64,000 bases of DNA, taken from IMG/VR virus record IMGVR_UViG_3300048930_001385; one strand, 5' to 3'. This document shows, in pieces, positions 1 through 26,006 of the stretch (its first letter is position 1; each line of letters starts with the position of its first letter). A program made the translations under genes and the position numbers. This DNA comes from an uncultured virus (IMG/VR IMGVR_UViG_3300048930_001385). Lineage: Duplodnaviria > Heunggongvirae > Uroviricota > Caudoviricetes. Below the pieces are notes generated by a model. That model searched no databases. It had not been told where the DNA came from and saw only the letters and a program-made list of their open reading frames with translations.

Positions 1-182
1 TTGCAAGCGCGGTAAGGAGCTCCATGCTCGCAGCATCCTTCTAGGTTTCGAACGCGCTCTTTGTAGTCGGTACTGATTTTGCCCTCAAGAATCTCTCGCT
101 TAGTATACATATTTGTATCATGACGTTACCCAGAGGCGCTGTCAAGACTCAATCCAGCTCGCACACCCCATATAATTAGGAC

Positions 183-1319
183 ATGAGCAGAGGCAGAGGA
201 CAAGGCGGTGATAGGATCGGTCTGCGTTATGACCCTGTCGGGTTTCGTGCGTGGTGGGAAACCGCAGATAGGGCCCAACGCAGAGAATATGTCTGGCCGC
301 GTGATCTGTCCGGATCCGACTTGGGCGGACTAGATCTGTCTGGCATAGACTTATCCGGTGTGGATCTGAGTAGTGCCGATCTGCGTGATACTAATCTGAG
401 CGGAGCCAAATTAGACCCTAACCGCACGCAAGGGGTTCTTTGGAACCATGCAACTCGTTTTGATAATAGCTACCTCCTACACGATCAGTGTCCGATTAAT
501 CTTGCTGATTATCGTTTAGCACAATCAACTCCGACTGAAATTTTTACTGACGACAACGGCGACTATGTTAAAAGGTGGCTTGACCGCAACGGACTCATGC
601 ACCGTATTGATGGACCGGCAGAAATCATTGAGGAAACGAATACTCATGACAAGCGCATACATTACACCTGGTATCGTCATGGCCAGTGTCATCGTGACAA
701 CGACGAACCTGCTGATATTGTTGAAAAGGATGGGGTGGTTATTGAGAGACATTGGTTTACTGATGACGTACACCACCGTGAAGTCGGCCCTGCAGAGATA
801 GTTGAGGACGAGGAAGGGGTACTTGAGTCCTGGATGTATCATGGCGTAGCGCATCGTCCAGACGGCGGCCCAACCCTGATTAACCGCACGCGAGCAGGTC
901 AGCTGCTCAATAGATCATATTCTCATCAAGGCGGAACACACCGTGACGAGGGGCCTGCTCGTGAAGAATGGAATGAGCAGGGAGTGAAAATCAAGGAGGA
1001 GTGGTGGCAGCATCGCCAGCTCCACCGTGAGGATGCTCCCGCGAGAACTCTCTGGAATGACCAGGGGGAGATTGAGCGCGAGATCTGGTGCTGTCAGGGC
1101 AGAGTGTCAAGAGACGATGGGCCTGCTGAAATTCATTACTACCCGAACGGTATTGTTAAGAGTGAGGTGTGGCGTCGGGGTGGGGTATACCATCGGGAGA
1201 ATGGTCCGGCGGAGATTCTCTACACACCTGAAGGAAATAAGCAATCCGAACGATGGGCTCTGAATGGTGAGTATTATGCTGGAGGACCAAACGGTGAACT
1301 CAGGCGAGATTATTATTAA
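183..1319 (+). CDS. Pentapeptide-repeat + MORN-like/YwqK-like (HRxDGPA) repeat protein with N-terminal MSRGR tag
   Basis: 378-aa ORF; DLSGxDL pentapeptide repeats followed by repeated HR.DGPA..W units; TATAAT 6 nt before ATG; paralog of 42314..43354. Confidence 0.85.
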   Translation: MSRGRGQGGDRIGLRYDPVGFRAWWETADRAQRREYVWPRDLSGSDLGGLDLSGIDLSGVDLSSADLRDTNLSGAKLDPNRTQGVLWNHATRFDNSYLLHDQCPINLADYRLAQSTPTEIFTDDNGDYVKRWLDRNGLMHRIDGPAEIIEETNTHDKRIHYTWYRHGQCHRDNDEPADIVEKDGVVIERHWFTDDVHHREVGPAEIVEDEEGVLESWMYHGVAHRPDGGPTLINRTRAGQLLNRSYSHQGGTHRDEGPAREEWNEQGVKIKEEWWQHRQLHREDAPARTLWNDQGEIEREIWCCQGRVSRDDGPAEIHYYPNGIVKSEVWRRGGVYHRENGPAEILYTPEGNKQSERWALNGEYYAGGPNGELRRDYY

Positions 1320-1330
1320 CACTGACTAGT

Positions 1331-1627
1331 TCAGTCAATCACCCAGTGACGACACCACTTACTGTTGATCTCTTCAAACGGATAAGAGAGCAATTCGGGG
1401 GCCTCGGGGTCAAACTGACGTGCGGTGCCGTCATACACGATTCCATCAACCAGGGTTACGTAGTGACTAATACACCGGCTCAGTCCCTTCTCAAAGAACT
1501 CTTGCCACCTCTCATCGACTCGTTCGGGGTCAACGTCAACAGGGTCAGCGACCTGTACCAGCTGACCGCCATTCGCATCGGCCCAAGCTCTTGCCCAATC
1601 GTAGCACCTGTCAAAACCATTATCCAT
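1331..1627 (-). CDS. hypothetical protein
   Basis: 98-aa ORF with protein-like composition, fills the gap between convergent genes. Confidence 0.6.
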   Translation of the reverse strand: MDNGFDRCYDWARAWADANGGQLVQVADPVDVDPERVDERWQEFFEKGLSRCISHYVTLVDGIVYDGTARQFDPEAPELLSYPFEEINSKWCRHWVID

Positions 1628-1956
1628 AACGTAGATATCGGCCTCTGCGAGAATGTTCTTGAGGCCAACTACTCGCTTGCAAGAAGCTGGAGTCGCTCGC
1701 CGAGTGCGATAATGCTCTGCCGGATCGGCTCCTTGTCAGTGATACCATGCGCTAAGAGGTCGTGCTTCTCTAGCCATTCTAGGAATGGATCAACAAGGGG
1801 CAGATATTTTGTCGCCAGTCGCTTCGCACGCGGCATATTCTCGTCTGGTGTCCAGTGGAGGCTTCCAGCATTATCAATATAGTCCACGAGTTTTACAAGG
1901 TAGGTGCCACTGTCAGAAGCGATCTTCACGACTACTCGGCGACAATATTCAGCGAA

Positions 1957-3980
1957 GGACTATTTATGATAAATTCACACATATTTGCGCTGAAAAAACG
2001 TCATGTGTTTCTTGCGCATAGAGCGGTTGTTATTTCTTGTTCTTTAGCTGGTTTTGTGATTGTTTCGTAAAAGAGGAATATGGTCATGATTGTTTGCTAA
2101 TATTTAGTATATGAAATTGCTTGCCCATCATAAAATGATTACGGACTTTAGGCGGCAAACTCCTTTGTCTTATTTTGAGTGTTTCCGTGTTTTAAAAATA
2201 TCAGGATGGGATTCAAAAGAGGCTCAAATAAAAGCCAGGGTTATCTATGATTACAAAATGGGTTATAGGTAAAAAAATAACTATCTGGTAAAACCAATTA
2301 CCGATTACTCCTGTTTACTTTGATATAATTATAGTATGAGTAATACTCATGTTATCAAAATCCCACTTCTGCTTGAAGAATGGGAAAAGAGTGAAATTGA
2401 CCGACGCTTTTACGCGCAGGGAACACTTTATAATGCTATCTTATTAACCTATTTGGAACGCATTGATCGATATCGCTCTCATCCAATAAGTCAACTAACG
2501 AGCAGCAAGGCTAATAATGAACGAAAGAATAAACTCAAGAAGAATATTGGATTATCAAAGTTTGATGTTCAAAAACTAGCTGGTAAGATAGCGAGAAGAT
2601 CAAAAAATCATTTATATGATGGGCTCACAGTAAATGAAACCGCTAGCAGGGCTCATCGAGCTTGTCAGAAATATTTGAAAACAGGAGCTTGCAAGCCTGC
2701 TGTCAAGAATCCTTATCACAATCATACGGTAATAGGATCTGGTATTCGTCAAAACCTGAGACTTGTGATGAGAGAAGAAGGTGGCCCAAAGCGCAAAAGC
2801 CAGATCAAAAGAACCCTTATCAATCCTGACTTGTTCGAGACTCATGATGATATTCACAATCTTTATCTATCATGGACTGGTCGCTTAGCTAATGAGAAAC
2901 TTCTTATGCGTATTGACTGGAATAGCATATCTCAGGTTAGGAGACAGTATTTCATCAAACATTTGAACAAGCTAGCCCAAACTGGCATTACGAAAGAACT
3001 CATCCGTGGTGAATGGAAGTATTATGCATTATTAGTTATAAATACTCCAGCTTATCGCAATAGTGACGATGAGAGAGACATGAAGGAAAAGACCGGTAAG
3101 AATATAGCTCTAGATACTGGACCTTATAGATCCCATACAGTAGATAGTGATAATCAATCATCAGAGATTACACCGTCCAAAGAGTTTATTACTAAGTACA
3201 AGACAGTAGAGGAGAAGATCAAAACTAAACAAAGAACAATAGAAAGATCCAGACGAGCTAATCCTAATTACCAAGAGAATTATAATCCGGATGGGACTAT
3301 AAAGAAAGGAGTAAGGTTTGACCCAGAACTCCGTTCTAATAATGCTAAAAAAGCAGGCCAAGAATTATACGAGTTGAACCGTAAACGATTAGCTATTCGA
3401 GATGAACTCATTCGTTATGAAGTCAAAGAGCTAGTTCGCGCTTACGATCAAGTCATTCTAGAAAAGATCAATTACTCCATATGGCAGAGACGCTATGGGA
3501 AAAGCATGCTCATACACACTCCCGGTTTGTTTCAGCATTTACTTCGCATAGAATTGGAGCGGCATAATAAAGAACTAATTATTATGCCGCTCAGGTATGC
3601 TTTCTCGCAATCATGCATATGCGGCAATAAAGTTAAGAAGAAACTGTCTAACCGTGTTCATGAGTGTGAGAATAATGACTGCTTATTATATAGCAAGCAA
3701 TACCAGCGCGATCAATTCTCAGCATGGCTTATGCTGCAATGCCATAAGCATAATCTAGCCCCTGCTGATTTACACTCAGGAAAACTACATAAACTTTTGG
3801 TATCTAAGATTAGCAATAATCAAAGAACCACTATTGAGACGCTACTGCCTCCAACCCTAGACCAAGCGAATAATACTAATATTAAACGCCGTTTAGAGCA
3901 AGACGCAATAATTCATGATAAACAAACACTACAAGCGGCAACTCAAGCTCAAACAAGTGTGAATTTATCATAAATAGTCT
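1957..3980 (+). mobile_element. TIR-bounded, transposase-less element carrying a TnpB-like nuclease
   Basis: Perfect 23-bp inverted repeats GACTATTTATGATAAATTCACAC (1958-1980) and 3957-3979; direct repeat TTCAGCGAA at 1948-1956 and 3980-3988; markedly AT-richer than the flanks. Confidence 0.9.
2336..3973 (+). CDS. tnpB: TnpB-like RNA-guided RuvC endonuclease
   Basis: 545 aa; RuvC-I IALDTG, RSRRANP..NYNPDGTIKKG clade motif, RuvC-II VILEK, Zn ribbon SQSCICG..HEC...C, RuvC-III RDQFSA; TATAAT-N6-ATG. Confidence 0.85.
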   Translation: MSNTHVIKIPLLLEEWEKSEIDRRFYAQGTLYNAILLTYLERIDRYRSHPISQLTSSKANNERKNKLKKNIGLSKFDVQKLAGKIARRSKNHLYDGLTVNETASRAHRACQKYLKTGACKPAVKNPYHNHTVIGSGIRQNLRLVMREEGGPKRKSQIKRTLINPDLFETHDDIHNLYLSWTGRLANEKLLMRIDWNSISQVRRQYFIKHLNKLAQTGITKELIRGEWKYYALLVINTPAYRNSDDERDMKEKTGKNIALDTGPYRSHTVDSDNQSSEITPSKEFITKYKTVEEKIKTKQRTIERSRRANPNYQENYNPDGTIKKGVRFDPELRSNNAKKAGQELYELNRKRLAIRDELIRYEVKELVRAYDQVILEKINYSIWQRRYGKSMLIHTPGLFQHLLRIELERHNKELIIMPLRYAFSQSCICGNKVKKKLSNRVHECENNDCLLYSKQYQRDQFSAWLMLQCHKHNLAPADLHSGKLHKLLVSKISNNQRTTIETLLPPTLDQANNTNIKRRLEQDAIIHDKQTLQAATQAQTSVNLS

Positions 3981-4476
3981 TCAGCGAATTTAACGTCATC
4001 CGACTGCTTTTTCCACGACTTATCTTCAATGGGGTTCGTTACACTGGCGACAAGATGCTTGACCCTGGCTCCGTAGTCGGCCTCAAGCTCGGCAAACATC
4101 GCCTCACGCGCATCCTCCGCACTCATGCTCTGATCGCGTAGCGCCATCCACTCGTCCATGCAGTCTTCTACCACATCATGGAATGCGGCTCCGATAAGGA
4201 CGTCTTCATCGGTGACGCCATAACGGATCAGCCTCAGGACATTGCGTAGGCAATGCTCGATGTACGGTGTCTCCTCTCGTCCCTGGACAGGCTCCTTGCG
4301 TGTCTGACCATCATGAAGGACGGTGGCGAGATCACAGGCTCGTTCTAACTGGACCCAGTCTCCACTCTCGCGAATTGCTTCGCGTAGAGTGATCGCGTCC
4401 ATATGCTTGAGCTTAACCATACCTAGTGTATCGGAAGAGGGTGGGCAAACTTGAGGCCAAGTGCTAGGCTGAGGAT

Positions 4477-4908
4477 ATGCAGATTCTCCCGCCTCATACT
4501 CGAGCCGTATACCTGGGGCTGGAGAGATCACAGCGGGCTCGGGTCCTGAGTGAAGGAACAAGAGGACCTGTATATGAGGCTCTGGTGCAGGAGTTGCGAG
4601 AAGTGCCAGAAATCGGAGCCAAAAGAGCCAGGTGTCTTGCTGGAGAGGAGTGGGTGATGTGGCTCAGACACTGGCAGAACAATCTTTACTATATAGTCAA
4701 CGAACCTGATCATCTATTAACATATCGCCAGGAAACTTATGAGCACAACAAGCTGATGGCGGGTATATTCGGTGCTCTTGGCGGTGTCGTGCTATCAGGC
4801 TCTGGACCAGAGTCTCCTAAGGAGCGGTACATGTTCACGCCATCATCGATCAGGTCGGTGCGCACTTGGGTAGTGTCCTGGCTTGATGTCGATGTGAAGA
4901 AGGTCTAG
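4477..4908 (+). CDS. HhH-motif paralog family protein
   Basis: LREVPEIGAKRA motif and C-terminal IRSVRTW; TAGGCT-N6-ATG. Confidence 0.7.
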   Translation: MQILPPHTRAVYLGLERSQRARVLSEGTRGPVYEALVQELREVPEIGAKRARCLAGEEWVMWLRHWQNNLYYIVNEPDHLLTYRQETYEHNKLMAGIFGALGGVVLSGSGPESPKERYMFTPSSIRSVRTWVVSWLDVDVKKV

Positions 4909-4925
4909 AAAAATTACTCAGTTTA

Positions 4926-5207
4926 TTACTCAGCAGCCCGAAGCTCACTCGCATAGAAGTGCCGCCGCGAGCCGAGCGCCGATACCAGCTGCCCCGCTGC
5001 CTCGTCATCACTGTCAAGCCAAAAGTCGCTGAGAGAGGCCATGGTCTCATAGGGGTCAAAATCCACCCAAAAGCGCGGCTCATCCGTCATCGCACCCTCA
5101 ATGTCAACCACTCGTCCCACCAGTCCCTGCTGATAGCGCAGCTCGCTGGTAACGACTACATTCTGTCCGAGATGAAAAGGGAGGGTCATAGTCATGGTAT
5201 CGGTCAT
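4926..5207 (-). CDS. hypothetical protein (SH3/KOW-like)
   Basis: 93-aa ORF, F.LGQ.V.V...G.VG.VV pattern. Confidence 0.6.
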   Translation of the reverse strand: MTDTMTMTLPFHLGQNVVVTSELRYQQGLVGRVVDIEGAMTDEPRFWVDFDPYETMASLSDFWLDSDDEAAGQLVSALGSRRHFYASELRAAE

Positions 5208-5216
5208 TCTGTTATT

Positions 5217-5438
5217 TTAATGAAGAGTGAGGACATCGTCATGGACAAGAAGGCTGCGCTGCTCTCCATTACGGGCGCAGACGGGGTAGTTGCCGTTCGG
5301 CAACTCTACGGCCTGCCGAAACTCATCACCATCATAGAGCTCTACCTTGCTACGGTCATGGGCGTCACCGTCCAGGTAGGACTGAACACTGTCCATATTG
5401 CGTGCGCCCACTCCGTGTAGAATAACTTCGTAAATCAT
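5217..5438 (-). CDS. hypothetical protein
   Basis: 73-aa ORF with GGAG RBS, downstream of the promoter at 5489. Confidence 0.55.
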   Translation of the reverse strand: MIYEVILHGVGARNMDSVQSYLDGDAHDRSKVELYDGDEFRQAVELPNGNYPVCARNGEQRSLLVHDDVLTLH

Positions 5439-5529
5439 CAGGACTCCGTCTCGTTAAGGCTGCCACTCCGTTTGCGGCTCAAGGAGTATATCGGCGCCCA
5501 GCCGGAGATCCCGAGGCCAACCGAGTGGC

Positions 5530-5766
5530 CTAGACGTCCCGTTCGCTGCGGATCACCTCGGACCCCGCCCGCATAGCCTGCTCAAGATTAGGGTAGACCT
5601 CGCTCCCGCGCTTACCCGCAACCTTAAGATAGTATCCCTCGTCATTTCGCCAAATCCCGATGTAATGGTACTGCCGCTCCACGGGCTGCCAGTGTTCTCG
5701 GCCATACATGCCGACAAAGCTATCTTGCTGCCAGACCTGACCCTCATGTTCTCTCGTCGTCACCAT
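5530..5766 (-). CDS. hypothetical protein
   Basis: 78-aa ORF; stop codon overlaps a GGCC box. Confidence 0.6.
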   Translation of the reverse strand: MVTTREHEGQVWQQDSFVGMYGREHWQPVERQYHYIGIWRNDEGYYLKVAGKRGSEVYPNLEQAMRAGSEVIRSERDV

Positions 5767-5769
5767 GCT

Positions 5770-7437
5770 TTAATTCTCCGCCATCCGTAGGTACACGTTT
5801 GTGAGGATACGCTGCATCGCTTCCCGCTCGGCCACGGGGGTCGATGTATCCATCATAGCCAAGGGAAACAGCATTGTCCCGCTGGCGAATGTCTCGGCTC
5901 CGCTGAGATGACGCATCATTCCACCGGCCACGGCATCAGGATTCTCGGGATCATGCCAGATTGGGGTGAAAATATCACGACTCGGGTGACCCACGGGAGG
6001 TGGTGAGTCGAACTCAATGGCGTAGGTGCCAATAGCACTACCCGCTGGAAGAGTGACACCATCCATAACGCCGGGTAGGTCTGCGGCCGAGGATGCGAGC
6101 ACGAAGGGGCGCACGAAATCGTACTCGTAACCGGTATAACCGACCCCTGAGATATTATAGTCGTTCCAATCCTGTGAACGCGAGCAAGCGCATGGAATTG
6201 TCATGTCCCATGCTGCGTACATTTTGTTACGCTTGCGGTTCATGATCACGCGGCGATAGAAAGTATTCGCTTGCAAAAACAGCATGTCCCCACCCCTGGC
6301 TCGGTAAGAGAGCAGGCGGTTATACATGGTCCCGGTGTAATACTCTGTGTGTCCCGGGAACACAAGCATACGGTACCGACGCAGGGTTGTTGGAGACATA
6401 CTTTCAAGCTCAATATCGGTCACTACCTGAATCGGGATTGCCCCAACCGCAGTGGCGGCGTTAGCCTTACGCCAGAGAAAGAATGGATTCAGCCATTCAT
6501 AATCCGCCTCACTTGACTCGGGCGTAGTCGTAATCATCGGGGCTATGATCGGAACATCGGCACCGACACGGCGGGTTCCCATGGCATACCAACTGTCCTG
6601 CCAGCCATCACTGTTCGTGTCCGGGCGATTGTAAGAGATCCATGTCAATGCAGGCATGACAATGAGCGCTGATCCATTGAGGGGCCGGTCAAGTGGAAGA
6701 GTTGAACGAACGACGACCGGTACGTTTACAGTAACCGATCCTGCCTTGACCCGGAGGCGGAGACTATCGCCCTCGGCCAGATAGGGCGCGTAGAGGCGGA
6801 AGGCTTGCGGGTCAGCGCCAAGCCACTCACCGATAGTATCCCCAGTTGATGATTGCAGTGTAATATCAACGCTCTTACGATCTGTCATGATATTGACGGG
6901 AACCCGGCTGCCTCCCGAATGGCTAACTGTCCAGTCCTTGCTCACCCAAAGAGAACGATCCTGAACAAGCACCGGATTCTCCGCACACGAACGGTTAAGC
7001 AGTGTCCGATCCGGCTTCCAGCCGTCAGCGCAAACTGTTAGCCAATACCCGCCCTGAGCAGGACTGAGGTAAGGGGCAATAATTTCTTTTTCACCGCGCC
7101 AAGTAACAAACCATCGACTTTCGCCTTGACGACAGCCCTTGGCCCCGATCTTTCTGAGGGAAGTCGTGCTCTCAGACGCTCGGATATAACCGCTCTGACG
7201 CGCGCGCAGCATGATAACTCGGCTAATCTTCTGCCCAGCCCGAGCGCAGACATGCATCCAAGCGGTATCATTTAGGCCATCACGATTTGGGGAGAAAACA
7301 ACCTGACTATGTGCGTAATCAACCGACGGAGGAGCCGGACTCTTGGGGCCGCTCGCTACCACTCGTAAATTAGCATTGGCGCTCGCGGGTAAAGCCATGA
7401 CCAGGAGCGCAATGGCGAGTACTAATCCCGACCTCAT
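5770..7437 (-). CDS. Secreted protein with N,N-dimethylformamidase beta-subunit-like domain
   Basis: Signal peptide MRSGLVLAIALLVMALPASANA; FSPNRDG motif; TWISYN, FPGHTEYYT and GGDMLFLQANTFY motifs. Confidence 0.7.
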   Translation of the reverse strand: MRSGLVLAIALLVMALPASANANLRVVASGPKSPAPPSVDYAHSQVVFSPNRDGLNDTAWMHVCARAGQKISRVIMLRARQSGYIRASESTTSLRKIGAKGCRQGESRWFVTWRGEKEIIAPYLSPAQGGYWLTVCADGWKPDRTLLNRSCAENPVLVQDRSLWVSKDWTVSHSGGSRVPVNIMTDRKSVDITLQSSTGDTIGEWLGADPQAFRLYAPYLAEGDSLRLRVKAGSVTVNVPVVVRSTLPLDRPLNGSALIVMPALTWISYNRPDTNSDGWQDSWYAMGTRRVGADVPIIAPMITTTPESSEADYEWLNPFFLWRKANAATAVGAIPIQVVTDIELESMSPTTLRRYRMLVFPGHTEYYTGTMYNRLLSYRARGGDMLFLQANTFYRRVIMNRKRNKMYAAWDMTIPCACSRSQDWNDYNISGVGYTGYEYDFVRPFVLASSAADLPGVMDGVTLPAGSAIGTYAIEFDSPPPVGHPSRDIFTPIWHDPENPDAVAGGMMRHLSGAETFASGTMLFPLAMMDTSTPVAEREAMQRILTNVYLRMAEN

Positions 7438-7778
7438 AGCCCTTCCTTCCATACTGGTGGGGCCGTGAATGGGCCGTTTGCGGCTCCACACGCGCAGCCA
7501 GCACAAATCGTCTGACAGTTAAGTGCTTGAACTTTCTCCTCAAGGCCTCCGTCAATAGTCAGCATCACCACTGACCGCTTCTTGTCTCGATTGACACTGC
7601 GCGCTCGCTGATCATGGAGGGCTGCGACGCTCCGTGGCGAGGAGCCGGTCGCCTCCATGAGCGCGATGGTTTTCGCAAGATTATCCTGACGAAGACGCTC
7701 AAGCTCTGAATTCGCCTGGGCGGAAGGGGCTGTGCTCAGGATCAGTGCACCAGTGATTGCGGGTAGCCACTTATTCAT
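7434..7778 (-). CDS. secreted hypothetical protein with Cys-rich C-terminus
   Basis: Signal-like N-terminus; CxxCxxCxC; ATG 8 nt after the CCGATA box. Confidence 0.6.
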   Translation of the reverse strand: MNKWLPAITGALILSTAPSAQANSELERLRQDNLAKTIALMEATGSSPRSVAALHDQRARSVNRDKKRSVVMLTIDGGLEEKVQALNCQTICAGCACGAANGPFTAPPVWKEGL

Positions 7779-7818
7779 ATTCAAGGTATCGGCAACAGAC
7801 TCAGTCTCTTGAGGCCAA

Positions 7819-7995
7819 CTAGTCGCGGAGGGCGCCGTAGTTGAGCATCCCCGTGAGTGTGAGCATGGCTCCGATAACAGGGTTGTTCTCTGCGAACATA
7901 AGCCACAGGCCACCTAGCACGAGCGGGAGCACCCAAATCGCGATAGTGATGATATGGATAAAGAGCTTACGGTTATTGTTCTCGGTAGTAGTCAT
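7819..7995 (-). CDS. small membrane protein
   Basis: Two hydrophobic segments; promoter at 8005. Confidence 0.55.
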   Translation of the reverse strand: MTTTENNNRKLFIHIITIAIWVLPLVLGGLWLMFAENNPVIGAMLTLTGMLNYGALRD

Positions 7996-8011
7996 CACTA
8001 TAGTTATCGTC

Positions 8012-8569
8012 CTATGAACGAGATTGCTTAAGGCCAATTGCTTGGCCAGTCTCTAACTCTTTTGCCCACCACTCACGCAGTGCTTTGATCTGCTTACGGC
8101 CAGCAGGACGCTCTGTTCTGTGACCATAATCTCGCCAACGTTCAGAAAGTCGCTGGATGATCTCTTCGGGGTACTGAATGATCGTCTCGGTAAACGTTAA
8201 TCCGTAGTGAGCGTTAGCAACCAGTGCATGGACAAGGTCCCAGGAATAGGCTGCACCGACTGAAGGCAGACTAGCTAATTTACTAGTTAAAATACCTCGG
8301 TAATAAGGATCGACAATACCCGTATAGCGAATGATTGCTGCATGAATATGGTAATAGTGATCACCATTGCTTACCCACAGGTCATTAGCCATTACAGAAT
8401 GGCTGGAAGGACTGGTATAACGGTCGTCAGGATGGCGCAGGCTATGTGGCAGGGCGAGGAAGAAAGGGCCCCGAATCCAATCATAGAGATCGTCCTCTGC
8501 CTCCCTGTCCGTCGGGCTACGGCGATGGAGAGAGGCGGGGTCGGCGAGAGGTGAATGGGAAATGTTCAC
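8012..8569 (-). CDS. HhH-motif paralog family protein
   Basis: LASLPSVGAAYSWDL ... IKALREWW; TATATT-N6-GTG. Confidence 0.75.
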   Translation of the reverse strand: MNISHSPLADPASLHRRSPTDREAEDDLYDWIRGPFFLALPHSLRHPDDRYTSPSSHSVMANDLWVSNGDHYYHIHAAIIRYTGIVDPYYRGILTSKLASLPSVGAAYSWDLVHALVANAHYGLTFTETIIQYPEEIIQRLSERWRDYGHRTERPAGRKQIKALREWWAKELETGQAIGLKQSRS

Positions 8570-8587
8570 TCTCTCAATATAGCACTA

Positions 8588-8998
8588 TCAAGGCTCGTTA
8601 ATCACCGTGGCCTTGCGGTACGAGTGAGGGCCGCGATCAAGACCACAGAGCTGCTGAAGTGTTTGTGGGGTCCCATACCGGCGTGCCTGCGTAACCTGGA
8701 GAGCAGTCACACTCTTCGCCGGCTTCGGATGATTGAAATAAGTATAGAGTGATCGTAGCTCACGCGGGTCGGCGTGATCCAGAGCCTGCGCCGGAGTGAC
8801 ACCGATCAGCGAACCCGGACCAACGATAAATTCACCAAGTACAACCTTATCGGGATAGGTCGCGTAGACCAGCACCCTGTCGCCGGGCTTCGCACCCATC
8901 TTCACACGGCGGTACTCGTGGAGCTTGGTGCCGTTCAGTAGCTCCTCCGCATACCAGCGATGGAGGGACACGAGCCATGTTGTTTGCTGATTACTCAT
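8588..8998 (-). CDS. ASCH-domain protein
   Basis: SLHRWYAEELLNGTKLHEYRR...GDRVLVYAT ASCH signature. Confidence 0.8.
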   Translation of the reverse strand: MSNQQTTWLVSLHRWYAEELLNGTKLHEYRRVKMGAKPGDRVLVYATYPDKVVLGEFIVGPGSLIGVTPAQALDHADPRELRSLYTYFNHPKPAKSVTALQVTQARRYGTPQTLQQLCGLDRGPHSYRKATVINEP

Positions 8999-9287
8999 TA
9001 GCATCACCATTGCACAGGCGATGCTCAACCTGCTGTCCGGGCTTCATAGAATTCGCCTTCTCCACAGTAGTATATTCAGTCCATGTATGCCCATTGCGAT
9101 GATACGTAATGATATACGCATTATTCTCGCGATAGGAGCTAGTGCCAACAGGATTAGGATTGGCCCCAACGCTCACAACACTTGAAGTGGTCATGATGCA
9201 TGGATTCTTTGCATGATACCACTCTATTGCCCCGAAAAATATGGCACCGATAACGAGGGTTAGCGCAAGTGTCCCGGTAGCACTCAT
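8991..9287 (-). CDS. membrane-anchored hypothetical protein
   Basis: N-terminal TM segment; GGAG RBS. Confidence 0.6.
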   Translation of the reverse strand: MSATGTLALTLVIGAIFFGAIEWYHAKNPCIMTTSSVVSVGANPNPVGTSSYRENNAYIITYHRNGHTWTEYTTVEKANSMKPGQQVEHRLCNGDANE

Positions 9288-9380
9288 TCTTGGCTCCTTG
9301 GTGGTACAACAGCTTCTATACACCCTATCGGCTAGGATTCCAGCGAGCCTTAGGCCAGTATGCTGGCCTTCTATCCAAAC

Positions 9381-9806
9381 TCAGGCTACAGCTGGCGTAT
9401 CCATCTCGTACACCACACGATCCCAGTGCCTTCGCACGCAGTAGATCCCAACCTGACCCGGTGAGTCGACGGGCATAAGATAGCCCCCATACGTTCGCGG
9501 AGCCCGGTTCTTGCGCTTGATTGAGTGAAGCTCAAGAATACTCCTTCCCAGATTAGTAGGGTAGACAAGATCGGTGGAATGGCGATATCCGGCGATGGTG
9601 CGCACGGGGGCGATGGTGATTAGCTCCATAGCCTGCAGGTCGCTGAAAATCTCCTTGACAATATCAACAGCGCACTCCTGGATCTCGACGAGATAGTTGC
9701 AGACGTCGGCCTCATTCATTTCACCGCCATCAACAATATACTCCATCGCGAGACAGTGCATGTCAGTCAGCTGGGGAGGGGCAAGCGGGAAAAGTCGCGG
9801 TGTCAT
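9381..9806 (-). CDS. hypothetical protein (possible winged helix)
   Basis: 141-aa ORF between two promoter elements. Confidence 0.6.
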   Translation of the reverse strand: MTPRLFPLAPPQLTDMHCLAMEYIVDGGEMNEADVCNYLVEIQECAVDIVKEIFSDLQAMELITIAPVRTIAGYRHSTDLVYPTNLGRSILELHSIKRKNRAPRTYGGYLMPVDSPGQVGIYCVRRHWDRVVYEMDTPAVA

Positions 9807-9901
9807 GATGGATAGCCTTTCGGTTTGGCGTTCTCAGTACGGTATATCGTTCATTCCGGGTTAGTCATGAGGCCAAAATCGTGGCCGCCAAGCTCTCTGA
9901 T

Positions 9902-10174
9902 CTACCGACGGAGCGATGAATGACGAGAGAGTACGTCCTGGATCTTGATATCCAGTTCAGCGTCTCCACCGCTGAGCTCGTTCAGCAGGCTCGGACACTC
10001 ACCGACAACAAGAGCATAGAGTTCGCTCAGGCAGGAGGCGAGATCGTCAGAGACCTCATCCGCGACTGCATGAGAGTCAATCAGATCCTCACGATCCCAA
10101 CCCACGCTCTCCCCGTTATAGATCATTGGGAGTGTATGACGGTCCTCAGCGGGAATGTAGTTCTTTTCAATCAT
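9902..10174 (-). CDS. hypothetical protein, paralog of 11794..11994
   Basis: Shared LV.GECPSLL.ELSGGDA segment. Confidence 0.7.
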   Translation of the reverse strand: MIEKNYIPAEDRHTLPMIYNGESVGWDREDLIDSHAVADEVSDDLASCLSELYALVVGECPSLLNELSGGDAELDIKIQDVLSRHSSLRR

Positions 10175-10253
10175 GGTTTCTCCTCAGCCTAAATTCGTAT
10201 CGGCGAAACAAGTCAGTCTTTCCAGGTCAATGTGATGGCCGCTAACAATATAT

Positions 10254-10285
10254 GGGGCGGGGTTAGTCCCCGATAGCCCCGCCCC
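10254..10285. terminator. GC-rich hairpin, probable terminator
   Basis: GGGGCGGGGTTA...TAGCCCCGCCCC inverted repeat. Confidence 0.45.
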
Positions 10286-10602
10286 TTTAGTCATCCATGT
10301 GCCGTCTCGCGGGGACACATTCCAGGCCGCTGTGGATGACCTAATAGTTACTAAGGCCTAGTCGTCCTACACTCACCAACCGAGCGACTTAGAAGCTGCG
10401 ACAAAAGACCCTGGCTCGGCTTCCTTGAGCTCTGCGATACGCTCACCGATGCGCTGCATTTTACTGTTATCCACGCTACCCACCGGTGAGAATCGCCACC
10501 AGCTAAGTAGCTGCTGGATACCTGCGTTTTCGATCTCGGCCTCGGTCATACCCTATGTATCGGTAGAGGGCGGGTGTACTTGAGGCCAAGGATGCGGCCT
10601 AT

Positions 10603-11025
10603 TCAGCCACCACAGGCGTCGCACTGCATTGTCGCGCCCGGCGCCGCGCCCTCACGGTAGTCTGGACAAATGCCCCACTCGTCGCAGTTATCACAGTCGT
10701 CAATATAAGGATTGCGCTCACTGCGGGCCATGCGGTCAATGTCTGGAACCTGATCGGCCATGACGGTGAAGTGGTAGCGCAGACGAGCATGAAACATCTC
10801 ATTGTCGCTTACGTTTTGAAGTTCCTTGATAATCGCTCGACGCTGATCGCGGTCGTAGCCCGCGTCCTTCATCACGTCGTCAGCCGTCTTGAGGATGGCA
10901 AAGACGTTCTGGTCCCGTACCGAAGCCATGATGACTGGGCGACCATCAAGATCAGGGCTCTGAATTCTGCCCCGCCCCTTCTGATCGTACCAAACGCGGG
11001 TGGGTCGGTCCTCAGTTCGTCGCAT
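10603..11025 (-). CDS. hypothetical protein with Cys-rich C-terminus
   Basis: 140 aa; AGGAG RBS; CxxC motifs. Confidence 0.65.
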   Translation of the reverse strand: MRRTEDRPTRVWYDQKGRGRIQSPDLDGRPVIMASVRDQNVFAILKTADDVMKDAGYDRDQRRAIIKELQNVSDNEMFHARLRYHFTVMADQVPDIDRMARSERNPYIDDCDNCDEWGICPDYREGAAPGATMQCDACGG

Positions 11026-11260
11026 GACATTCTCCTTGCTAGGTTACTGTTCTCAGTATCTATCGGCATCAACACTTGATAGGGGAGGACAATACGACGG
11101 CCTCTTTCCAATACCGATATAGAAATTCCCGGACTGCTAACCGAGTATCTGGCGCAGCATCGTCAGCCGCTGACGACACGATGACTGCACGGATCGTTCT
11201 CAAGCAAGGGCTCTGTATTTAAAATATTCTGGGTGTAGTCGACGCGCTCAGTTTAGCAGA

Positions 11261-11740
11261 CTAGAGAGCTTTCTGGTAATGATCAACCCTGACCCCGACC
11301 GTGGATTCGCGGTATCCGCCTCCCGACGGCATGAAACCGTGCTTGCGAACAAATCGCTGAGCAAGGGTGTTGGTGCGCCAGCAAGAGACTCGCATCGTCT
11401 CCAGCCCTAGCGCTCGTGCTTGTCGTTCTCTCCACGATTGGAGTAACGACCCTAGACCTTGTCCAGAGTCGAGCGTGTACATCCCTACACTCCCGCCGTC
11501 CGCTCGTGAACCGCGCTTGCGGAAGCCAGTGTAGCCGATGATCTTTCCATCCAGGATTGCAATCCAAAGATAGTAATCCTTGCGCCCAATACGATAGCGG
11601 AAATACTCTTCGCCAGCGGACTTATCAATCCAGGCACGGGCACCTTCACCGTAAGCTCGTTCTGCACTCACCCGCTTCAGAGCAGCAAGCTCTGCGATAT
11701 CATCGCGGTGTGCTGCGCGGATTGTAATGTCTTCTTCCAT
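11261..11740 (-). CDS. GNAT acetyltransferase
   Basis: IRAAHRDD start, GQGLGSLL acetyl-CoA motif, N..A.RF..KHGF; leaderless ATG. Confidence 0.85.
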   Translation of the reverse strand: MEEDITIRAAHRDDIAELAALKRVSAERAYGEGARAWIDKSAGEEYFRYRIGRKDYYLWIAILDGKIIGYTGFRKRGSRADGGSVGMYTLDSGQGLGSLLQSWRERQARALGLETMRVSCWRTNTLAQRFVRKHGFMPSGGGYRESTVGVRVDHYQKAL

Positions 11741-11793
11741 ATCACTGTTATCGGAGGAAAACACTGCTAGCCTGAGGCCAAGAATCTGGCCTG

Positions 11794-11994
11794 TTAGCTC
11801 TTGCGCAGGCGACAGCGGAACGACAAGGTCTCCTGGATTCGCATATACATGTCGGCATCGCCACCACTGAGCTCATCCAGAAGGCTGGGGCACTCACCCA
11901 TAACCAGAGAGAACAGATCGTCCAAGCACCCAGCGATGTTGTCACCCAAAGTATCCGACACCCAGGATTTCGCCGGTCTGTTATTGCTTGTCAT
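11794..11994 (-). CDS. hypothetical protein, paralog of 9902..10174
   Basis: LVMGECPSLLDELSGGDA; start uncertain. Confidence 0.6.
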   Translation of the reverse strand: MTSNNRPAKSWVSDTLGDNIAGCLDDLFSLVMGECPSLLDELSGGDADMYMRIQETLSFRCRLRKS

Positions 11995-12184
11995 CACTAT
12001 CGGTAAACCCGGCCCCATCCTTGAGGCCGAAGTGCTGGCCTCGCTGAGTTGCCAAATTGATGTATATTCCCCGCGTCCGACTTGAACGGACTGCCAACCA
12101 CCCACTCGCTTCTGTACTATCCACGAGGGCCTTATGGGACGGGGCAGAAAGTGACATCGCGTAGTACCACCATTCACTCCCCAG

Positions 12185-17328: not shown

Positions 17329-17400
17329 TGGGCCCGGAGGGATTCGAACCCCCAACAAAGAGATTAAAAGTCTCCTACTCTACCGTTGAGTTACAAGCCC
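17329..17400 (-). tRNA. tRNA-Lys(UUU)
   Basis: Canonical cloverleaf GGGCTTG...GGAGA-CTTTTAA-TCTCT...GGTTCGAATCC...CGGGCCCA; own promoter at 17414. Confidence 0.92.
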
Positions 17401-23366: not shown

Positions 23367-23795
23367 CTAAAGGCTGAGCAAGCTAGAGGCCAGATAATGG
23401 CCCAATGCTTTGCGAGCGCTCTCGGTTAGCGGATAAGCAATAGCACGCTCCGGATTTTGCCAAGTCCAGTCACTATGCTCGCGAGCATTGAGGGTGACCT
23501 TTGCTTGCCCCTGAATGAACGACCGATAAAATGCAGCGCGGAGAATACGGCCACTGTGGAGGCCTTGATAGTCGCAGAATGGTTCGGGGTCAAGACTAAC
23601 AACAAGGCCAGTCTCCTCATGCAATTCTCGTCGTGCAGCCGTTCGGGGATCCTCACCGGCATCGATTTTGCCACCAGGTAGCTCCCAGTCTCCCGCCAGC
23701 GCTGATCCTTGACTGCGCTGAACCAAGAGAACCTGCCCGTGCTCATTCACGACTAGCGTGCGAGCGCAGAGAATCGGATTTTGCGTGAGGTTCAT
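23367..23795 (-). CDS. NUDIX hydrolase (MutT-like)
   Basis: Nudix box GGKIDAGEDPRTAARRELHEETGL. Confidence 0.92.
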   Translation of the reverse strand: MNLTQNPILCARTLVVNEHGQVLLVQRSQGSALAGDWELPGGKIDAGEDPRTAARRELHEETGLVVSLDPEPFCDYQGLHSGRILRAAFYRSFIQGQAKVTLNAREHSDWTWQNPERAIAYPLTESARKALGHYLASSLLSL

Positions 23796-23854
23796 AATCT
23801 ATGTATCGTCATGGGATATCTAAATAGGAGGACAGGATTGTGGCCTGCGAAGTT

Positions 23855-24466
23855 CTAATCTAGAGTGTTCGCCCAGTGGATCAGCTCATCAACTTGCTCA
23901 TCGGTTAGACCGACTCGGGCATCGGGGATGATAAATTTATGAGCACGAGCGAACGCAAGCTCATCGGCAGGATCGTCTTGAACGGTGAACTTACTGAGGA
24001 GGCCGTTGGTTTCGCTTTCCCAGATGCCTGAAGCTTGAAGCCAGTGCGGAGGAATGTGATCATCATCAACCCATGCGAACGGTGTGCCCCCGCGCTCCGT
24101 GATGTAGGCCTCGATTCCCGGGTGCTTGAAGCTCGCGCTGAGTCGATGCTGCACAGGAATGATATCAGCGTGCTGTGGCCATTCAGGGATGAGTGGCAAG
24201 AACTTCGCTACTCGCTCCTCCCACATTGTCGCCCACACCAGTTCGTAGTGTTGGAGTAGGCGGCTGACTCGCTGGATCATAGACTCGGTGACGAGCACCT
24301 GCATTTCCCAGACAGTCCCCCGGATATTACCACTCATGTGAAAGTTGAGTGTTCGGTAAGGCTCGTGTGGAATATAGTCAAGCCGGGGGTCGTCAATGTG
24401 CACAGAGCCGTTGGGGAAGATAACCCCATCGACGTCAAGCATTAAGTATGGCTTTTCGTGCAGCAT
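23855..24466 (-). CDS. HAD-family phosphatase (Swiss-Army-knife RNA-repair type)
   Basis: LDVDGV, LVWATMW, K, FAWVDD, GLT motifs. Confidence 0.8.
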   Translation of the reverse strand: MLHEKPYLMLDVDGVIFPNGSVHIDDPRLDYIPHEPYRTLNFHMSGNIRGTVWEMQVLVTESMIQRVSRLLQHYELVWATMWEERVAKFLPLIPEWPQHADIIPVQHRLSASFKHPGIEAYITERGGTPFAWVDDDHIPPHWLQASGIWESETNGLLSKFTVQDDPADELAFARAHKFIIPDARVGLTDEQVDELIHWANTLD

Positions 24467-24570
24467 AGTATCTTTATCGGTTTCAGGAGCGATGCCTTGA
24501 GGACAGCGTAATGGCCTTGCAACTGCTCGGTATGGCTGACCCGGCTTTTAGCGATGGTGTAGTAGCAACA

Positions 24571-24828
24571 CTAGCTGATTGTCAGCAGGCGCACATTACC
24601 CTTGGAAGAGCTCTTTCCCGTTCGGAATGCATTAATCTCTCCACACCAGTTGCAACCTGAAAATGCAATCCGGGTGGAGCGATCAATGCGTGGCGTGTGC
24701 TTGCGATTGTACTTGCCGCAATCACCACACACGTATTCGATGTTCGCCTTGAACATTCCTCCAGCGCTCCACGCACTGGCGATAGTCAAGTCAACCTTGG
24801 TGCCCTGAATGTCTACTGTCACCTGCAT
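24571..24828 (-). CDS. zinc-ribbon protein
   Basis: CGDC...CNWC; AGGAG RBS. Confidence 0.6.
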   Translation of the reverse strand: MQVTVDIQGTKVDLTIASAWSAGGMFKANIEYVCGDCGKYNRKHTPRIDRSTRIAFSGCNWCGEINAFRTGKSSSKGNVRLLTIS

Positions 24829-24872
24829 GTCTGCTCCTTTAATGCGGTAATAAGTCTATCGGCAAGCCATAG

Positions 24873-25106
24873 TTACAACGCGAGGCCAGCCTTATAGCCT
24901 CGCACCGGCTCTTGTGTGGTTGGATCAATCTCAATGAAAATCTTACCGAAAGTGTGGCGGCGACCGTCACCGGCAAGGTCGGAGCCCTTATGGTCGACTC
25001 GGACAACATACCCTTCTGCACGCAGCTCCTTGGCCTTTGTGCGACAGAAATCCATGGTGTAGTCGCTTGTACACCACGCTAGCCACTTTCGCTTCTTACC
25101 ACTCAT
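24873..25106 (-). CDS. hypothetical protein
   Basis: 77 aa; GAGG RBS. Confidence 0.55.
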   Translation of the reverse strand: MSGKKRKWLAWCTSDYTMDFCRTKAKELRAEGYVVRVDHKGSDLAGDGRRHTFGKIFIEIDPTTQEPVRGYKAGLAL

Positions 25107-25180
25107 GTCTTGCCTCTCGTTTGCCTACGGTATGATTATCGGCATACCCGACAGTCTTGTCGAGGACAAAAGGATGGCCG

Positions 25181-25969
25181 TTACTGCTCGCAGACTACCC
25201 CGTCTCCGTCGCCATCGCGGTACCACTCATATTCAGGGTCCACGCCCTGGGTGTAAGGGCCGTAGCCAGCCGCATTAGCCTCTGCACAGGTATCAAAACG
25301 AGGATCGTCACCCGTGGTTGCGGGTGGCTCGGCGCTGACTACCCCGACTGGTGGCCTCTGGGGTCGGGTTAGGTTGACGCGCGGACAAGCTCGGAGGCGA
25401 GTGCGGATGTTATTGCGCTCGGCCTCGTTCATGGTTAGCCGCCAGCGCCACTTAACAAGGATCCATTGATTAAGATACTGACAACGATACACCGCCCTCG
25501 GCACCATCCACTGGCTAGGGTCCTTGTCACCCTTAGAGCGATTAACCGATGCCGTGACAGCAATCAGTGAAGGGCCGTAGAGGTCGTTTGCGAAACGCTC
25601 GCGGGTGTTCGAGTCCCACTGCCGGGCGCCGCTACGCCAAGCTTCGGCGAGTGCGACAACATGATCAATGTCCATGCCCCGTGAACGAGTGTGGTAGCGA
25701 CCATCGTAAGGAGAATACCATCGTCCAGTTATTGTGTTGTTGCACGCAGGCTTAGGGCGACGGAGACTCTCTGCCTGTAAGACCTCTCGGCGAGTATCGC
25801 ACCCGTCGCGGTCTGCATCGACCCAATGCCTGAAGAGGGCGCGGTCGTAACCCTGCATAGGTTGATCGACAGATACAGGGATCTCACTGAGTAGCTGAGT
25901 AGGAGTCGCTGCCGAAGCCGGAGCGCTGAACGCAAGCATTGATACAATAAATATGGAGAAGGCCTTCAT
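25181..25969 (-). CDS. Secreted HNH-family nuclease (DUF1524-like) with C-terminal Excalibur Ca-binding domain
   Basis: Signal peptide; DIDHVVALAEAW, FAND, NRSKGDKDP..W; F.TCAEA.AAG...DGDGDGVVCE. Confidence 0.88.
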   Translation of the reverse strand: MKAFSIFIVSMLAFSAPASAATPTQLLSEIPVSVDQPMQGYDRALFRHWVDADRDGCDTRREVLQAESLRRPKPACNNTITGRWYSPYDGRYHTRSRGMDIDHVVALAEAWRSGARQWDSNTRERFANDLYGPSLIAVTASVNRSKGDKDPSQWMVPRAVYRCQYLNQWILVKWRWRLTMNEAERNNIRTRLRACPRVNLTRPQRPPVGVVSAEPPATTGDDPRFDTCAEANAAGYGPYTQGVDPEYEWYRDGDGDGVVCEQ

Positions 25970-26006
25970 AGGCTTATTATCGGCAACTGCTACGGATCCC
26001 GGAGGC

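Follow-up and report, generated by a model that had tools for sequence, protein, structure and literature searches.

TnpB nucleases, the ancestors of Cas12 and now in use as compact genome editors, have been characterised nearly always in IS605 and IS607 elements, whose excision is scarless and whose insertion makes no duplication. The locus studied here raises a question: how did a gene of this family come to lie between inverted repeats flanked by a duplication, and what might move such a unit? We examined this in a 64-kb stretch of DNA from an uncultured phage-like virus (hereafter the window), starting from an earlier note, made from the sequence alone, that had described a TnpB-like nuclease in an element with terminal inverted repeats, a target-site duplication, and no transposase.

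The element spans positions 1957 to 3979/80 (2.02 kb; 2023 bp) and is AT-rich. Its left terminal inverted repeat (1957–1991, plus strand) has a perfect core at 1958–1980 and an imperfect extension running inward up to 1991; the right repeat (3946–3980, minus strand) has its perfect core at 3957–3979. As arms, 1958–1991 and 3946–3979 are 91% complementary over 34 nt, the outer 23 nt without mismatch, which bears out the 23-bp perfect repeats, extended to ~34 bp, that had been described. With up to 3 mismatches allowed, the 23-mer occurs at only 2 places in the 64-kb window, a result reached in 0 of 100 dinucleotide shuffles. The flanking sequence TTCAGCGAA is identical at 1948–1956 and 3980–3988, and both copies abut the inverted ends without a gap; the chance of an exact 9-bp match at abutting positions is ~4e-6. 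An 8-bp duplication, TCAGCGAA (left copy 1949–1956), with termini GGAC...GTCT is an alternative fit. As first reported, then, the duplication fits either 8 or 9 bp, both lengths being compatible with the sequence. G+C content drops from 47.6–56.8% in all other 1-kb bins to 36.7–38.1% in the element.

The AT-rich, non-coding left part (1992–2335, plus strand) includes a 53-aa ORF (2111–2272) that had no Pfam match. TGATATAAT, at 2321–2329 directly before the ATG of the main ORF, can be read as a putative promoter element; a scan for consensus promoters and terminators gave 5 promoter-like sites against 7.3 expected. Treated as RNA, the left non-coding 379 nt folded no better than shuffles (z = 0.08). 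We considered whether a decayed TnpA survives in the 53-aa ORF or the left region and discarded the idea, since tblastn of a Y1 TnpA against the window gave no match better than E 3.5.

The flanks identify what was interrupted. The N-terminal part of an HD-domain (HD_4) gene lies at 3989–4561 on the minus strand (Pfam HD_4 profile positions 1–84 of 156; residues 5–147 of the homolog P0172, E 2e-36), and its C-terminal part lies at 1669–1947 on the same strand (P0172 residues 152–208, 63% identity, E 2e-22); TTCAGCGAA codes for F-A-E at the breakpoint. Both halves are open, are 46–63% identical to P0172, and are colinear with this intact 242-aa protein, only 4 residues separating the matched parts. 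In-silico excision of the element with one copy of the repeat joined them into a single uninterrupted minus-strand frame of 320 codons. Because this colinearity with an intact protein holds and excision restores the frame, TTCAGCGAA is a true target-site duplication and the element inserted into a working gene. Together with the G+C step, the split gene and the restored frame back the claim of a genuine insertion. The perfect ends, the perfect duplication, the open gene halves, and the G+C contrast point to a recent event.

The replicon that received the element is phage-like and roughly 552 kb in size; in the window its genes are dense and small, belong to bacterial and phage families, and are accompanied by 3 bacterial-type tRNAs. 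Megablast of window positions 1–12000 against phages gave no match. Among sequencing runs searched for window words, no RNA run was listed, and one DNA run contained 12% of the sampled words; its reads placed 3 short identical pieces and 1 unrelated piece on the window, and included no junction or empty-site read.

The element's main gene (2336–3973, plus strand) is a 545-aa ORF that occupies 1638 of the 2023 bp, the 53-aa ORF being the sole other ORF of at least 50 aa. Its TAA stop, at 3971–3973, lies within the right repeat, as the earlier note had observed. Alignments place the RuvC triad at D260 (codon 3113–3115), E376 (3461–3463), and D459 (3710–3712) and the zinc ligands at C427/C429/H442/C444/C449 (3614–3682), in a zinc-finger (TNB) insert that separates RuvC-II from RuvC-III. 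All these residues are invariant in a 7-protein alignment (A1); across a 95-protein alignment D260 and E376 show no variation, and conservation is 90% or more for D459 and the Cys/His ligands. The description of a single ORF with an intact RuvC D/E/D triad and zinc ribbon thus holds in both alignments. Matches to curated TnpB models were significant, yet all fell below the cut-offs: NCBIfam guided_TnpB matched residues 59–447 (E 6e-12; 45.5 bits, cut-off 100), Pfam OrfB_IS605 scored 24.9 against 30.5, and TNB scored 16.9 against 26.3. Cas12f1-like_TNB matched weakly at residues 399–446, and the phage family phrog_506 matched with E 2e-18. An AF2 model (pLDDT 92.1, pTM 0.85) gave 68 Foldseek matches at E ≤ 0.001, among them ISFba1 TnpB (8iaz; E 2.5e-10, TM by target 0.63); other top matches were AsCas12f, Cas12m2, ISDra2 TnpB (8h1j/8exa), and, at rank 14, mimivirus Fanzor2 (9b0l). 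The model superposes on guide-RNA-bound TnpB and Cas12f across 470–520 columns, with no extra DNA-binding domain evident. Judged by its alignments and modelled structure, the 545-aa protein is a divergent TnpB/Cas12f-fold protein whose active-site residues are intact.

What the element appears to lack is an enzyme to move it. In agreement with the earlier note, no transposase turned up in the element, in a Pfam scan of 106 window ORFs, or in a PHROGs scan of 21; tblastn revealed no Y1 TnpA in the window, and the window ORFs scanned included no recombinase and no Cas1. Searching with the end repeat, which had been suggested as a route to sister copies and the cognate transposase, was unproductive: the exact 23-mer had 0 matches in viral and metagenome contigs. 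Matches to a 17-mer of the ends at 8 loci in viral contigs were set aside, all being single chance matches without a partner repeat or TnpB. The left 388 bp had no blastn match in plasmids, and scanning viral, metagenome, and genome contigs for the protein pattern gave no confirmed relative from the close clade. Across viral, metagenome, and genome contigs and plasmids, the searches yielded neither a cognate transposase nor an autonomous partner nor a second copy of the DNA; the evidence of mobility is one insertion event. Of the suggestion that this is a non-autonomous, DDE-mobilised element, the part that stands is an inverted-repeat insertion whose only recognised gene is of the TnpB family; a DDE enzyme is suggested solely by the end architecture, and these searches gave no cognate.

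The close clade comprises 8 proteins among ~15 billion, with 5 representatives at E ≤ 1e-30 among 1.84 billion. FastTree trees, whose support values are SH-like, place the clade on a long stem of 1.0–1.2 changes per column with 100% support; the 21 nearest proteins outside it have no known context, so that the inverted-end architecture may have arisen in this clade or before it. For the locus scan an outgroup sub-alignment (A3) was used, the sequences of the wide alignment (A2) being too diverse. The C-termini of P0002, P0003, and P0004, which are 54–65% identical to the window protein, read IYHK, IYHK, and FYHK, and IYHK-stop is encoded by the +1 frame of the right repeat in the window; the extreme C-terminus of the window protein is in a different frame from those of its three closest relatives. 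In the more distant members P0005, P0006, P0007, and P0022 the C-termini differ. Because the (I/F)YHK endings of three relatives correspond to the right repeat in another frame, these C-terminal peptides, seen in 3 of 7 relatives, indicate that the overlap of ORF and end repeat is probably old and long-standing. The word 'captured' in the earlier note, which implies a recent event, fits poorly with an association kept at 54–65% identity. By the same peptides, in 3 of 7 relatives, inverted ends and duplications may be a trait of the clade.

The end repeat occurs a third time, in degenerate form and left-end orientation with 16 of 23 matches, at 3907–3930 (plus strand), where it codes for the conserved peptide IHDK. 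This copy can pair as a 5' arm with the right repeat (3911–3930 with 3956–3975; 20 nt, 80% complementary), and the resulting hairpin occurs in the minimum-free-energy fold. A chance origin of the third copy is only moderately unlikely: 6 of 400 shuffles had such a copy at most 80 nt from an end, and 65 of 400 had one anywhere. The segment 3740–3988 (plus strand), in which the ORF ends and the right repeat lies, is a candidate omega/reRNA scaffold; as a single sequence it folded with a z-score of −2.47, and 3 of 200 shuffles were as good. Rfam gave no match in 1500–4500 at E ≤ 1. The scaffold is proposed by analogy with TnpB, with Fanzor1, whose guide RNAs take in the end repeat and the duplication (PMC10711439), and with a hairpin in actinobacterial TnpB elements.

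These actinobacterial loci (L019–L079; e.g., from Streptomyces sp. AP-93) have 20-bp inverted ends in 15 of 50 cases, 1.9–3.75 kb apart, with the TnpB stop 19 nt before the right end. Their termini, CTAAG...CTTAG, are what a duplication of TA within CTAG would give, and not one of 9 bp; the proteins are 640–680 aa long, come from high-G+C sequence, and form a separate clade in trees. An upstream transposase-type HTH_Tnp_4 gene is present in some copies and absent in others. The upstream ORFs of L030 and L019 showed no DDE catalytic domain by Pfam or NCBIfam, and HTH_Tnp_4 was found in L019 only. The hairpin, which draws on the inner portion of the right repeat, was 85% paired compared with 20–37% when slid, a figure biased towards it because we named the structure ourselves; 1 of 500 shuffles attained its 13 compensatory cells, and it was not returned in RNAalifold's own consensus on the right ends. 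The window element and this family share inverted ends, a TnpB stop near or in the right end, and an end-repeat hairpin. They differ in that the actinobacterial elements have ends that fit a TA duplication, proteins of 640–680 aa, and, in L019, HTH_Tnp_4, whereas the window element has an 8–9-bp duplication and a 545-aa protein.

Transposases of the ISL2, IS630, and IS1031 types make 2–3-bp duplications; the window element differs with its 8–9 bp, and no partner transposase was found for it in the collections searched. These three are the types linked to TnpB so far (PMC13565253). In Altae-Tran et al. 2023 (PMC10691335), prokaryotic DDE-associated TnpBs with inverted terminal repeats form six branches, DDE-1 to DDE-6, and solo TnpBs with matching ends are presumed to be moved in trans; a 2026 review restates the existence of prokaryotic DDE-linked TnpBs (PMC13565253). 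The window element resembles the DDE-1 to DDE-6 elements in having a prokaryote-type TnpB within inverted terminal repeats and a TnpB 3' end near the transposon end. Elements of this kind are recognised by inverted repeats and a TnpB 3' end at most 250 bp from the end; here the ends are 23–34 bp and the stop is inside the right repeat. The pairing of TnpB with inverted ends in prokaryotes is rare and previously described (PMC10691335), and the earlier note, which took Fanzors as the sole comparison, overstated its novelty. New here is the 9-bp (or 8-bp) duplication combined with no recognised transposase.

Similar in some respects is Fanzor1 of eukaryotes and eukaryotic viruses (Bao & Jurka 2013, PMC3627910; Yoon et al. 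2023, PMC10711439): a TnpB homolog is the only gene, the element is non-autonomous and has inverted ends and a target duplication, and the end repeat and duplication are proposed parts of the guide-RNA scaffold. Fanzors reside in eukaryotes or eukaryotic viruses; the window, in contrast, holds bacterial and phage genes and 3 tRNAs, and the best matches of its protein are bacterial TnpB and Cas12f, with Fanzor2 14th. With the IS200/IS605 elements, including the IS1341 group, the element shares a homologous nuclease, and TnpB-only copies in that group are also thought to be moved in trans. IS605-type relatives with retrievable DNA had Y1 TnpA, one-strand subterminal hairpins, no inverted ends, and no duplication, which confirmed that carriers of this type lack such features; the window element, with inverted ends, a 9-bp duplication, and no TnpA, lies outside the IS200/IS605 group. 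It likewise lies outside IS607, which is defined by a serine recombinase TnpA and by the lack of inverted ends and duplication.

Taken jointly, the evidence leads us to favour, with appreciable reservation, a non-autonomous inverted-repeat insertion sequence with a TnpB-family gene, moved in trans by a DDE-type enzyme and using guide-RNA homing. Such an element would have entered the HD-domain gene by cut-and-paste-type transposition, giving the 8–9-bp target duplication. The DDE-type enzyme, most likely encoded elsewhere, would bind the 23–34-bp ends and mobilise the element in trans. By analogy with IS605 TnpB and Fanzor1, transcription through the ORF's 3' end and the right repeat would yield a guide-RNA scaffold, the neighbouring flank serving as guide, and the nuclease would cut genomes with an uninterrupted site, so that the element is retained or copied by recombination. 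We infer the kind of transposase, the movement in trans, the guide RNA, and the homing; what the data show directly are the ends, the duplication and the split gene, the fold and active site of the nuclease, the scarcity of the clade, and the conserved overlap between ORF and repeat.

The element could instead be a relic or domesticated copy, inserted once and now immobile, whose nuclease serves the replicon, e.g., by cutting competing genomes or host DNA. We regard this as unlikely, if worth keeping in mind. It would account for the single copy within the 64-kb window, for the great rarity of the clade (the 5 representatives noted above), and for the C-terminal reading frame, unlike that of the three closest relatives; moreover, the sole relative on a contig of equal length is 65% identical, which makes it an old paralog rather than a recent copy. 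Against this, the perfect 23-bp ends and duplication, the open gene halves (46–63% identical to the homolog), and the G+C contrast argue for a recent event, and both ends are intact, which a domesticated gene would not need.

Casposon duplications are ~14–15 bp long, whereas 8–9 bp is typical for many DDE families; this length, and the lack of Cas1 among the window ORFs scanned, argue against movement by an integrase outside the DDE group that acts on inverted ends and leaves duplications, such as a Cas1-type casposase or an unrecognised enzyme. We consider this improbable, even though the transposase of the window element was not recognised and repeat-flanked TnpB loci linked to Asgard Cas1 are reported (PMC10691335).

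Another account, which we hold to be quite improbable, is an autonomous element in which the TnpB-like protein, whose RuvC domain has the RNase-H fold found in DDE transposases, itself recognises the inverted ends, excises the element, and integrates it in a staggered manner. The element has no space for another gene, the overlap of ORF and end repeat is retained across relatives at 54–65% identity, and the long stem of the clade (1.0–1.2 changes per column, 100% support) suggests a functional change. However, no TnpB is known to transpose DNA, and TnpB is dispensable in IS605 transposition (PMC13565253); the model superposes on guide-RNA-bound TnpB and Cas12f over 470–520 columns with no evident extra DNA-binding domain; and related inverted-end elements carry a separate transposase-type gene, both among the actinobacterial loci and in PMC10691335. 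In a bolder form, to which we give very little credence, the eight-member clade would be a TnpB lineage turned into its own transposase, perhaps guided by right-repeat RNA and performing cut-and-paste with staggered cuts and a 9-bp duplication; the 2-kb unit would then be a self-sufficient RNA-linked transposon and not a passenger moved in trans. Accidental repeats with no transposition, for which the one copy seen is the sole support, can be dismissed given the 0 of 100 shuffles, the ~4e-6 chance of the 9-bp match, the colinear split gene, and the G+C step.

For a trans-mobilised insertion sequence with a guided nuclease, the favoured reading, cut-and-paste movement has a consequence: the sequence beside the right end is the duplicated target, so that the scaffold must accommodate the end repeat and possibly the duplication as well. 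To our knowledge, this has been studied in eukaryotic Fanzor1 only. The element is a clean and evidently recent prokaryotic case, with perfect ends and duplication, a reconstructable empty site, intact nuclease residues, and an ORF that extends into the end repeat, and it would allow the guide problem of cut-and-paste TnpB carriers to be tested in bacteria. The length of the duplication, 8–9 bp, suggests a partner from a transposase family so far unlinked to TnpB. The locus also shows the invasion of a very large phage-like genome by a TnpB-only insertion. If directed at the empty allele, its nuclease would, by analogy, behave like a homing endonuclease between co-infecting genomes.

The element at 1957-3979/80 is bounded by the sole outstanding inverted pair recovered by repeat search, 1958-1991 and 3946-3979 (34 nt, 91% complementary), the outermost 23 nt of which match perfectly. 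Allowing up to three mismatches, this 23-mer occurs at just two places in the 64-kb window, the element's own ends; no dinucleotide shuffle of 100 contained two matches. The sequence TTCAGCGAA lies immediately outside the repeats at 1948-1956 and again at 3980-3988. Because the left terminus carries an extra G, the element can be read as 1957-3979 with a 9-bp duplication, or as 1957-3980, in which case the duplication is 8 bp and one terminal base is mismatched. Its longest and only long ORF, 2336-3973 (+), encodes 545 aa and has its stop codon within the right repeat. The region reads as the earlier note described it: inverted ends, a duplication, and one TnpB ORF stopping in the right repeat.

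The element is a true insertion. The two 1-kb bins within it have G+C contents of 36.7% and 38.1%, against 47.6%-56.8% in the remaining bins of the window, and it is adjoined by two minus-strand ORFs, 3968-4561 and 1669-1929, the upstream piece of which matches HD_4 over the first half of the domain (Pfam profile positions 1-84 of 156). Deleting the element along with one copy of the repeat, by coordinates, joined the flanks into a single 320-codon open frame. One intact relative of the split gene, P0172 (242 aa), came up in a protein search: 3989-4561(-) matched its residues 5-147 (E 2e-36), 1672-1947(-) matched residues 152-208 (63% identity, E 2e-22), and the four residues matched by neither half mark the position of the duplicated 9 bp. 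The insertion therefore hit a functional gene, and it is probably recent because the ends and the duplication are perfect and both gene halves are still open.

Curated profiles recognise the element's protein weakly. NCBIfam guided_TnpB matched at E 6e-12 (45.5 bits versus a cut-off of 100), the Pfam OrfB_IS605 and Cas12f1-like TNB domain matches both fell under cut-off, and phrog_506 ('transposase') matched at E 2e-18. An alignment of seven of the eight members of the close clade shows no variation at the predicted catalytic residues, D260 (IDTGP), E376 and D459 (RDQFS), or at the CxC...HxC...C ligands; in a 95-sequence alignment D260 and E376 remain invariant, and D459 and the Cys/His ligands are at least 90% conserved. 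An AlphaFold2 model built from the latter alignment has a mean pLDDT of 92.1 and a pTM of 0.85, with disorder limited to residues 522-545. Foldseek returned 68 PDB matches at E ≤ 0.001, headed by ISFba1 TnpB (8iaz), AsCas12f, Cas12m2 and Cas12p, with mimivirus Fanzor2 (9b0l) at rank 14, followed by ISDra2 TnpB (8h1j, 8exa). As modeled, the protein is a full-length nuclease of the TnpB/Cas12f fold with an intact active site. An extended -10-like motif, TGATATAAT, at 2321-2329 ends 6 nt ahead of the ATG; it was not among the sites given by a consensus promoter scan, and reading the sequence between motif and ATG revealed no Shine-Dalgarno-like sequence. The TnpB-like mRNA may be leaderless.

Close relatives are very rare. 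Among 1.84 billion cluster representatives, searched exhaustively, 597 proteins reached E ≤ 0.001 and five reached E ≤ 1e-30; combined with a word-indexed search, this defined a clade of eight, namely the window protein, P0002 (65% identical), P0003 (54%), P0004 (55%, encoded on a 218,747-bp contig), and P0005, P0006, P0007 and P0022 (39-45%). All proteins outside this clade were at most 39% identical and gave partial matches. The C-termini of P0002, P0003 and P0004 are ...IYHK, ...IYHK and ...FYHK, and the right repeat of the window, read one frame off its ORF, encodes IYHK and then a stop, so in these three relatives (54-65% identity) the ORF likewise runs on into an end that shares this terminal sequence. 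These termini indicate that the association of the ORF with the end repeat is old. The window ORF stops 5 nt earlier, in a different frame, inside the tail that is disordered in the model; P0005, P0006, P0007 and P0022 have different C-termini, which allow no statement on their ends. At 3907-3929 lies a third, degenerate repeat copy in left-end orientation (16 of 23 positions matching). A 20-nt pairing, at 80%, joins it to the right repeat (3911-3930 to 3956-3975). It encodes IHDK, a peptide that is conserved in P0002 and, in part, in the other relatives. Among 400 shuffles of the interior such a copy arose within 80 nt of an end in six and anywhere in 65, making the third copy suggestive, not compelling.

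The inverted ends and duplication set the element apart from its IS605-type relatives. Of the 80 loci from bacterial genomes returned by an outgroup-alignment scan, 13 have a Y1 TnpA gene directly adjoining the TnpB gene. Among these is a 2132-bp Nitrospirota element with Y1 tnpA (151.9 bits to Pfam Y1_Tnp at locus L003) and a 505-aa tnpB, present in one genome in at least six full copies of ~98% identity (L003, L005, L006, L007, L009 and L013, 5457-7588 in each) and a seventh, rearranged one (L011); it is probably active. Boundaries set by these copies, and likewise by two copies in a Janthinobacterium genome, showed neither inverted ends nor a duplication in either element, unlike the window element; their two ends carry similar hairpin-forming sequences on one strand, the pattern expected of IS200/IS605. 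Of the two best annotated plasmid relatives examined, that of Acidithiobacillus caldus adjoins an annotated IS200/IS605 tnpA, and that of Scytonema has no annotated transposase beside the TnpB gene.

Inverted ends do occur in actinobacterial TnpB elements. A right end, ...GATCAAGTCTTAG, is common to 50 of 62 actinobacterial loci, mostly Streptomyces (L019 to L079; e.g., L030, 4012-6967), and 15 of these 50 have an inverted copy of its final 20 nt 1.9-3.75 kb upstream (≤5 mismatches). In L019, an ORF between the left end and TnpB carries HTH_Tnp_4 (34.1 bits, cut-off 27), a domain that forms the N-terminal part of a DDE transposase family; neither Pfam nor NCBIfam recognised a catalytic part. 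In both L019 and L030 this upstream gene looks frameshifted. Shorter copies lack the HTH_Tnp_4 gene and keep the ends, as in L069 (4667-6685, 2019 bp). The 20-bp ends read CTAAGAC...GTCTTAG; termini of CTAAG...CTTAG fit a TA duplication within CTAG, in contrast to the 8-9 bp of the window element. TnpB terminates 19 nt short of the element end. A hairpin with the inner part of the right repeat as its 3' arm, named by the analyst after the RNAalifold consensus did not return it, is 85.4% paired over 49 sequences, versus 20-37% with the partner slid, and has 13 compensatory cells, a count that 1 of 500 shuffles attained.

ISL2-, IS1031- and IS630-type elements make 2-3-bp duplications, and those of 8-9 bp are typical of families such as IS1, IS4/IS10, IS903-group IS5, IS256, IS1595, ISL3 and IS6. 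In the literature searched, no prokaryotic TnpB element was reported to have a duplication of 8-9 bp. Pairing TnpB with inverted ends is not new for prokaryotes: PMC10691335 describes TnpB branches linked with DDE transposases, of which the actinobacterial family is probably one, and a 2026 review (PMC13565253) gives the transposases as ISL2, IS630 and IS1031 types and calls such associations rare in prokaryotes. FastTree trees of 106 and 124 proteins resolved the window clade as a single group on a long stem (100% SH-like support), nearest to 21 P0026-like proteins, with the Y1-linked loci and the actinobacterial inverted-end group placed elsewhere; being midpoint-rooted with local support, the trees show separateness, not direction. 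The novelty lies in a very rare clade that combines a duplication of 8-9 bp with a gene overlapping its end repeat, and in a clean insertion into a large phage-like genome that can be reconstructed.

The ~100 ORFs of the window are for the most part small and lie largely on a single strand, with three tRNA genes (Lys-ttt, 17329-17400; Met-cat, 54957-55043; Leu-caa, 56349-56432) scattered among small ORFs without family matches. Megablast of 1-12000 matched no known phage. P0002 lies on a contig of the same length as that of the window, 552,685 bp, and so probably on the same replicon; together with the tRNAs, this length points to either a very large phage or a megaplasmid, and both fit. The few family matches include TelA and an RNA-repair or conflict-type cluster at 23367-26879(-) comprising NUDIX (23367-23795), HAD_SAK_2 (23855-24466), GmrSD_C + Excalibur (25181-26029) and an RlaP nucleotidyltransferase (26007-26879), all on the minus strand, as well as a cREC_REC protein (46794-47333). 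Pentapeptide-repeat or MORN_2-like proteins (183-1319, 37430-38110, 42314-43354, 47499-48530) look like a paralogous repeat-protein family scattered over the window; an H-R-x-D-G-P-A motif recurs in their MORN_2-like repeats. A secreted-looking 578-aa protein (5770-7506) has a DMFA2_C domain (E 1.8e-21), the C-terminal domain of the N,N-dimethylformamidase beta subunit type, an unusual cargo for a phage-like region.

The earlier note took the element to be non-autonomous, DDE-mobilised, and to have taken up TnpB. That account is partly supported: its architecture and nuclease are real, and the DDE partner, movement in trans and the guide are what we infer. The 23-34-bp ends would be bound by a transposase, most likely a DDE enzyme, whose gene lies elsewhere and which would move the element in trans. 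The last 200-250 nt of the ORF and the right repeat would form a guide-RNA scaffold (fold z-score -2.47; 3 of 200 shuffles fold equally well), and the flank next to the right end would provide the guide. An IS605-like guide starting at 3980, as first proposed, would match fully only at the empty site; the left junction of the occupied site matches 9 nt only, so self-cutting would be avoided, and the proposal is logically consistent. In Fanzor1, as shown in PMC10711439, the end repeat and target duplication belong to the guide-RNA scaffold and the guide reaches ~15 nt past the duplication. A comparable guide from 3989 would have its target in both alleles, and an upstream motif would have to discriminate between them. 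The sequence fits either start. A nuclease of this kind in a phage-like genome would behave as a homing endonuclease does, attacking co-infecting genomes without the insertion.
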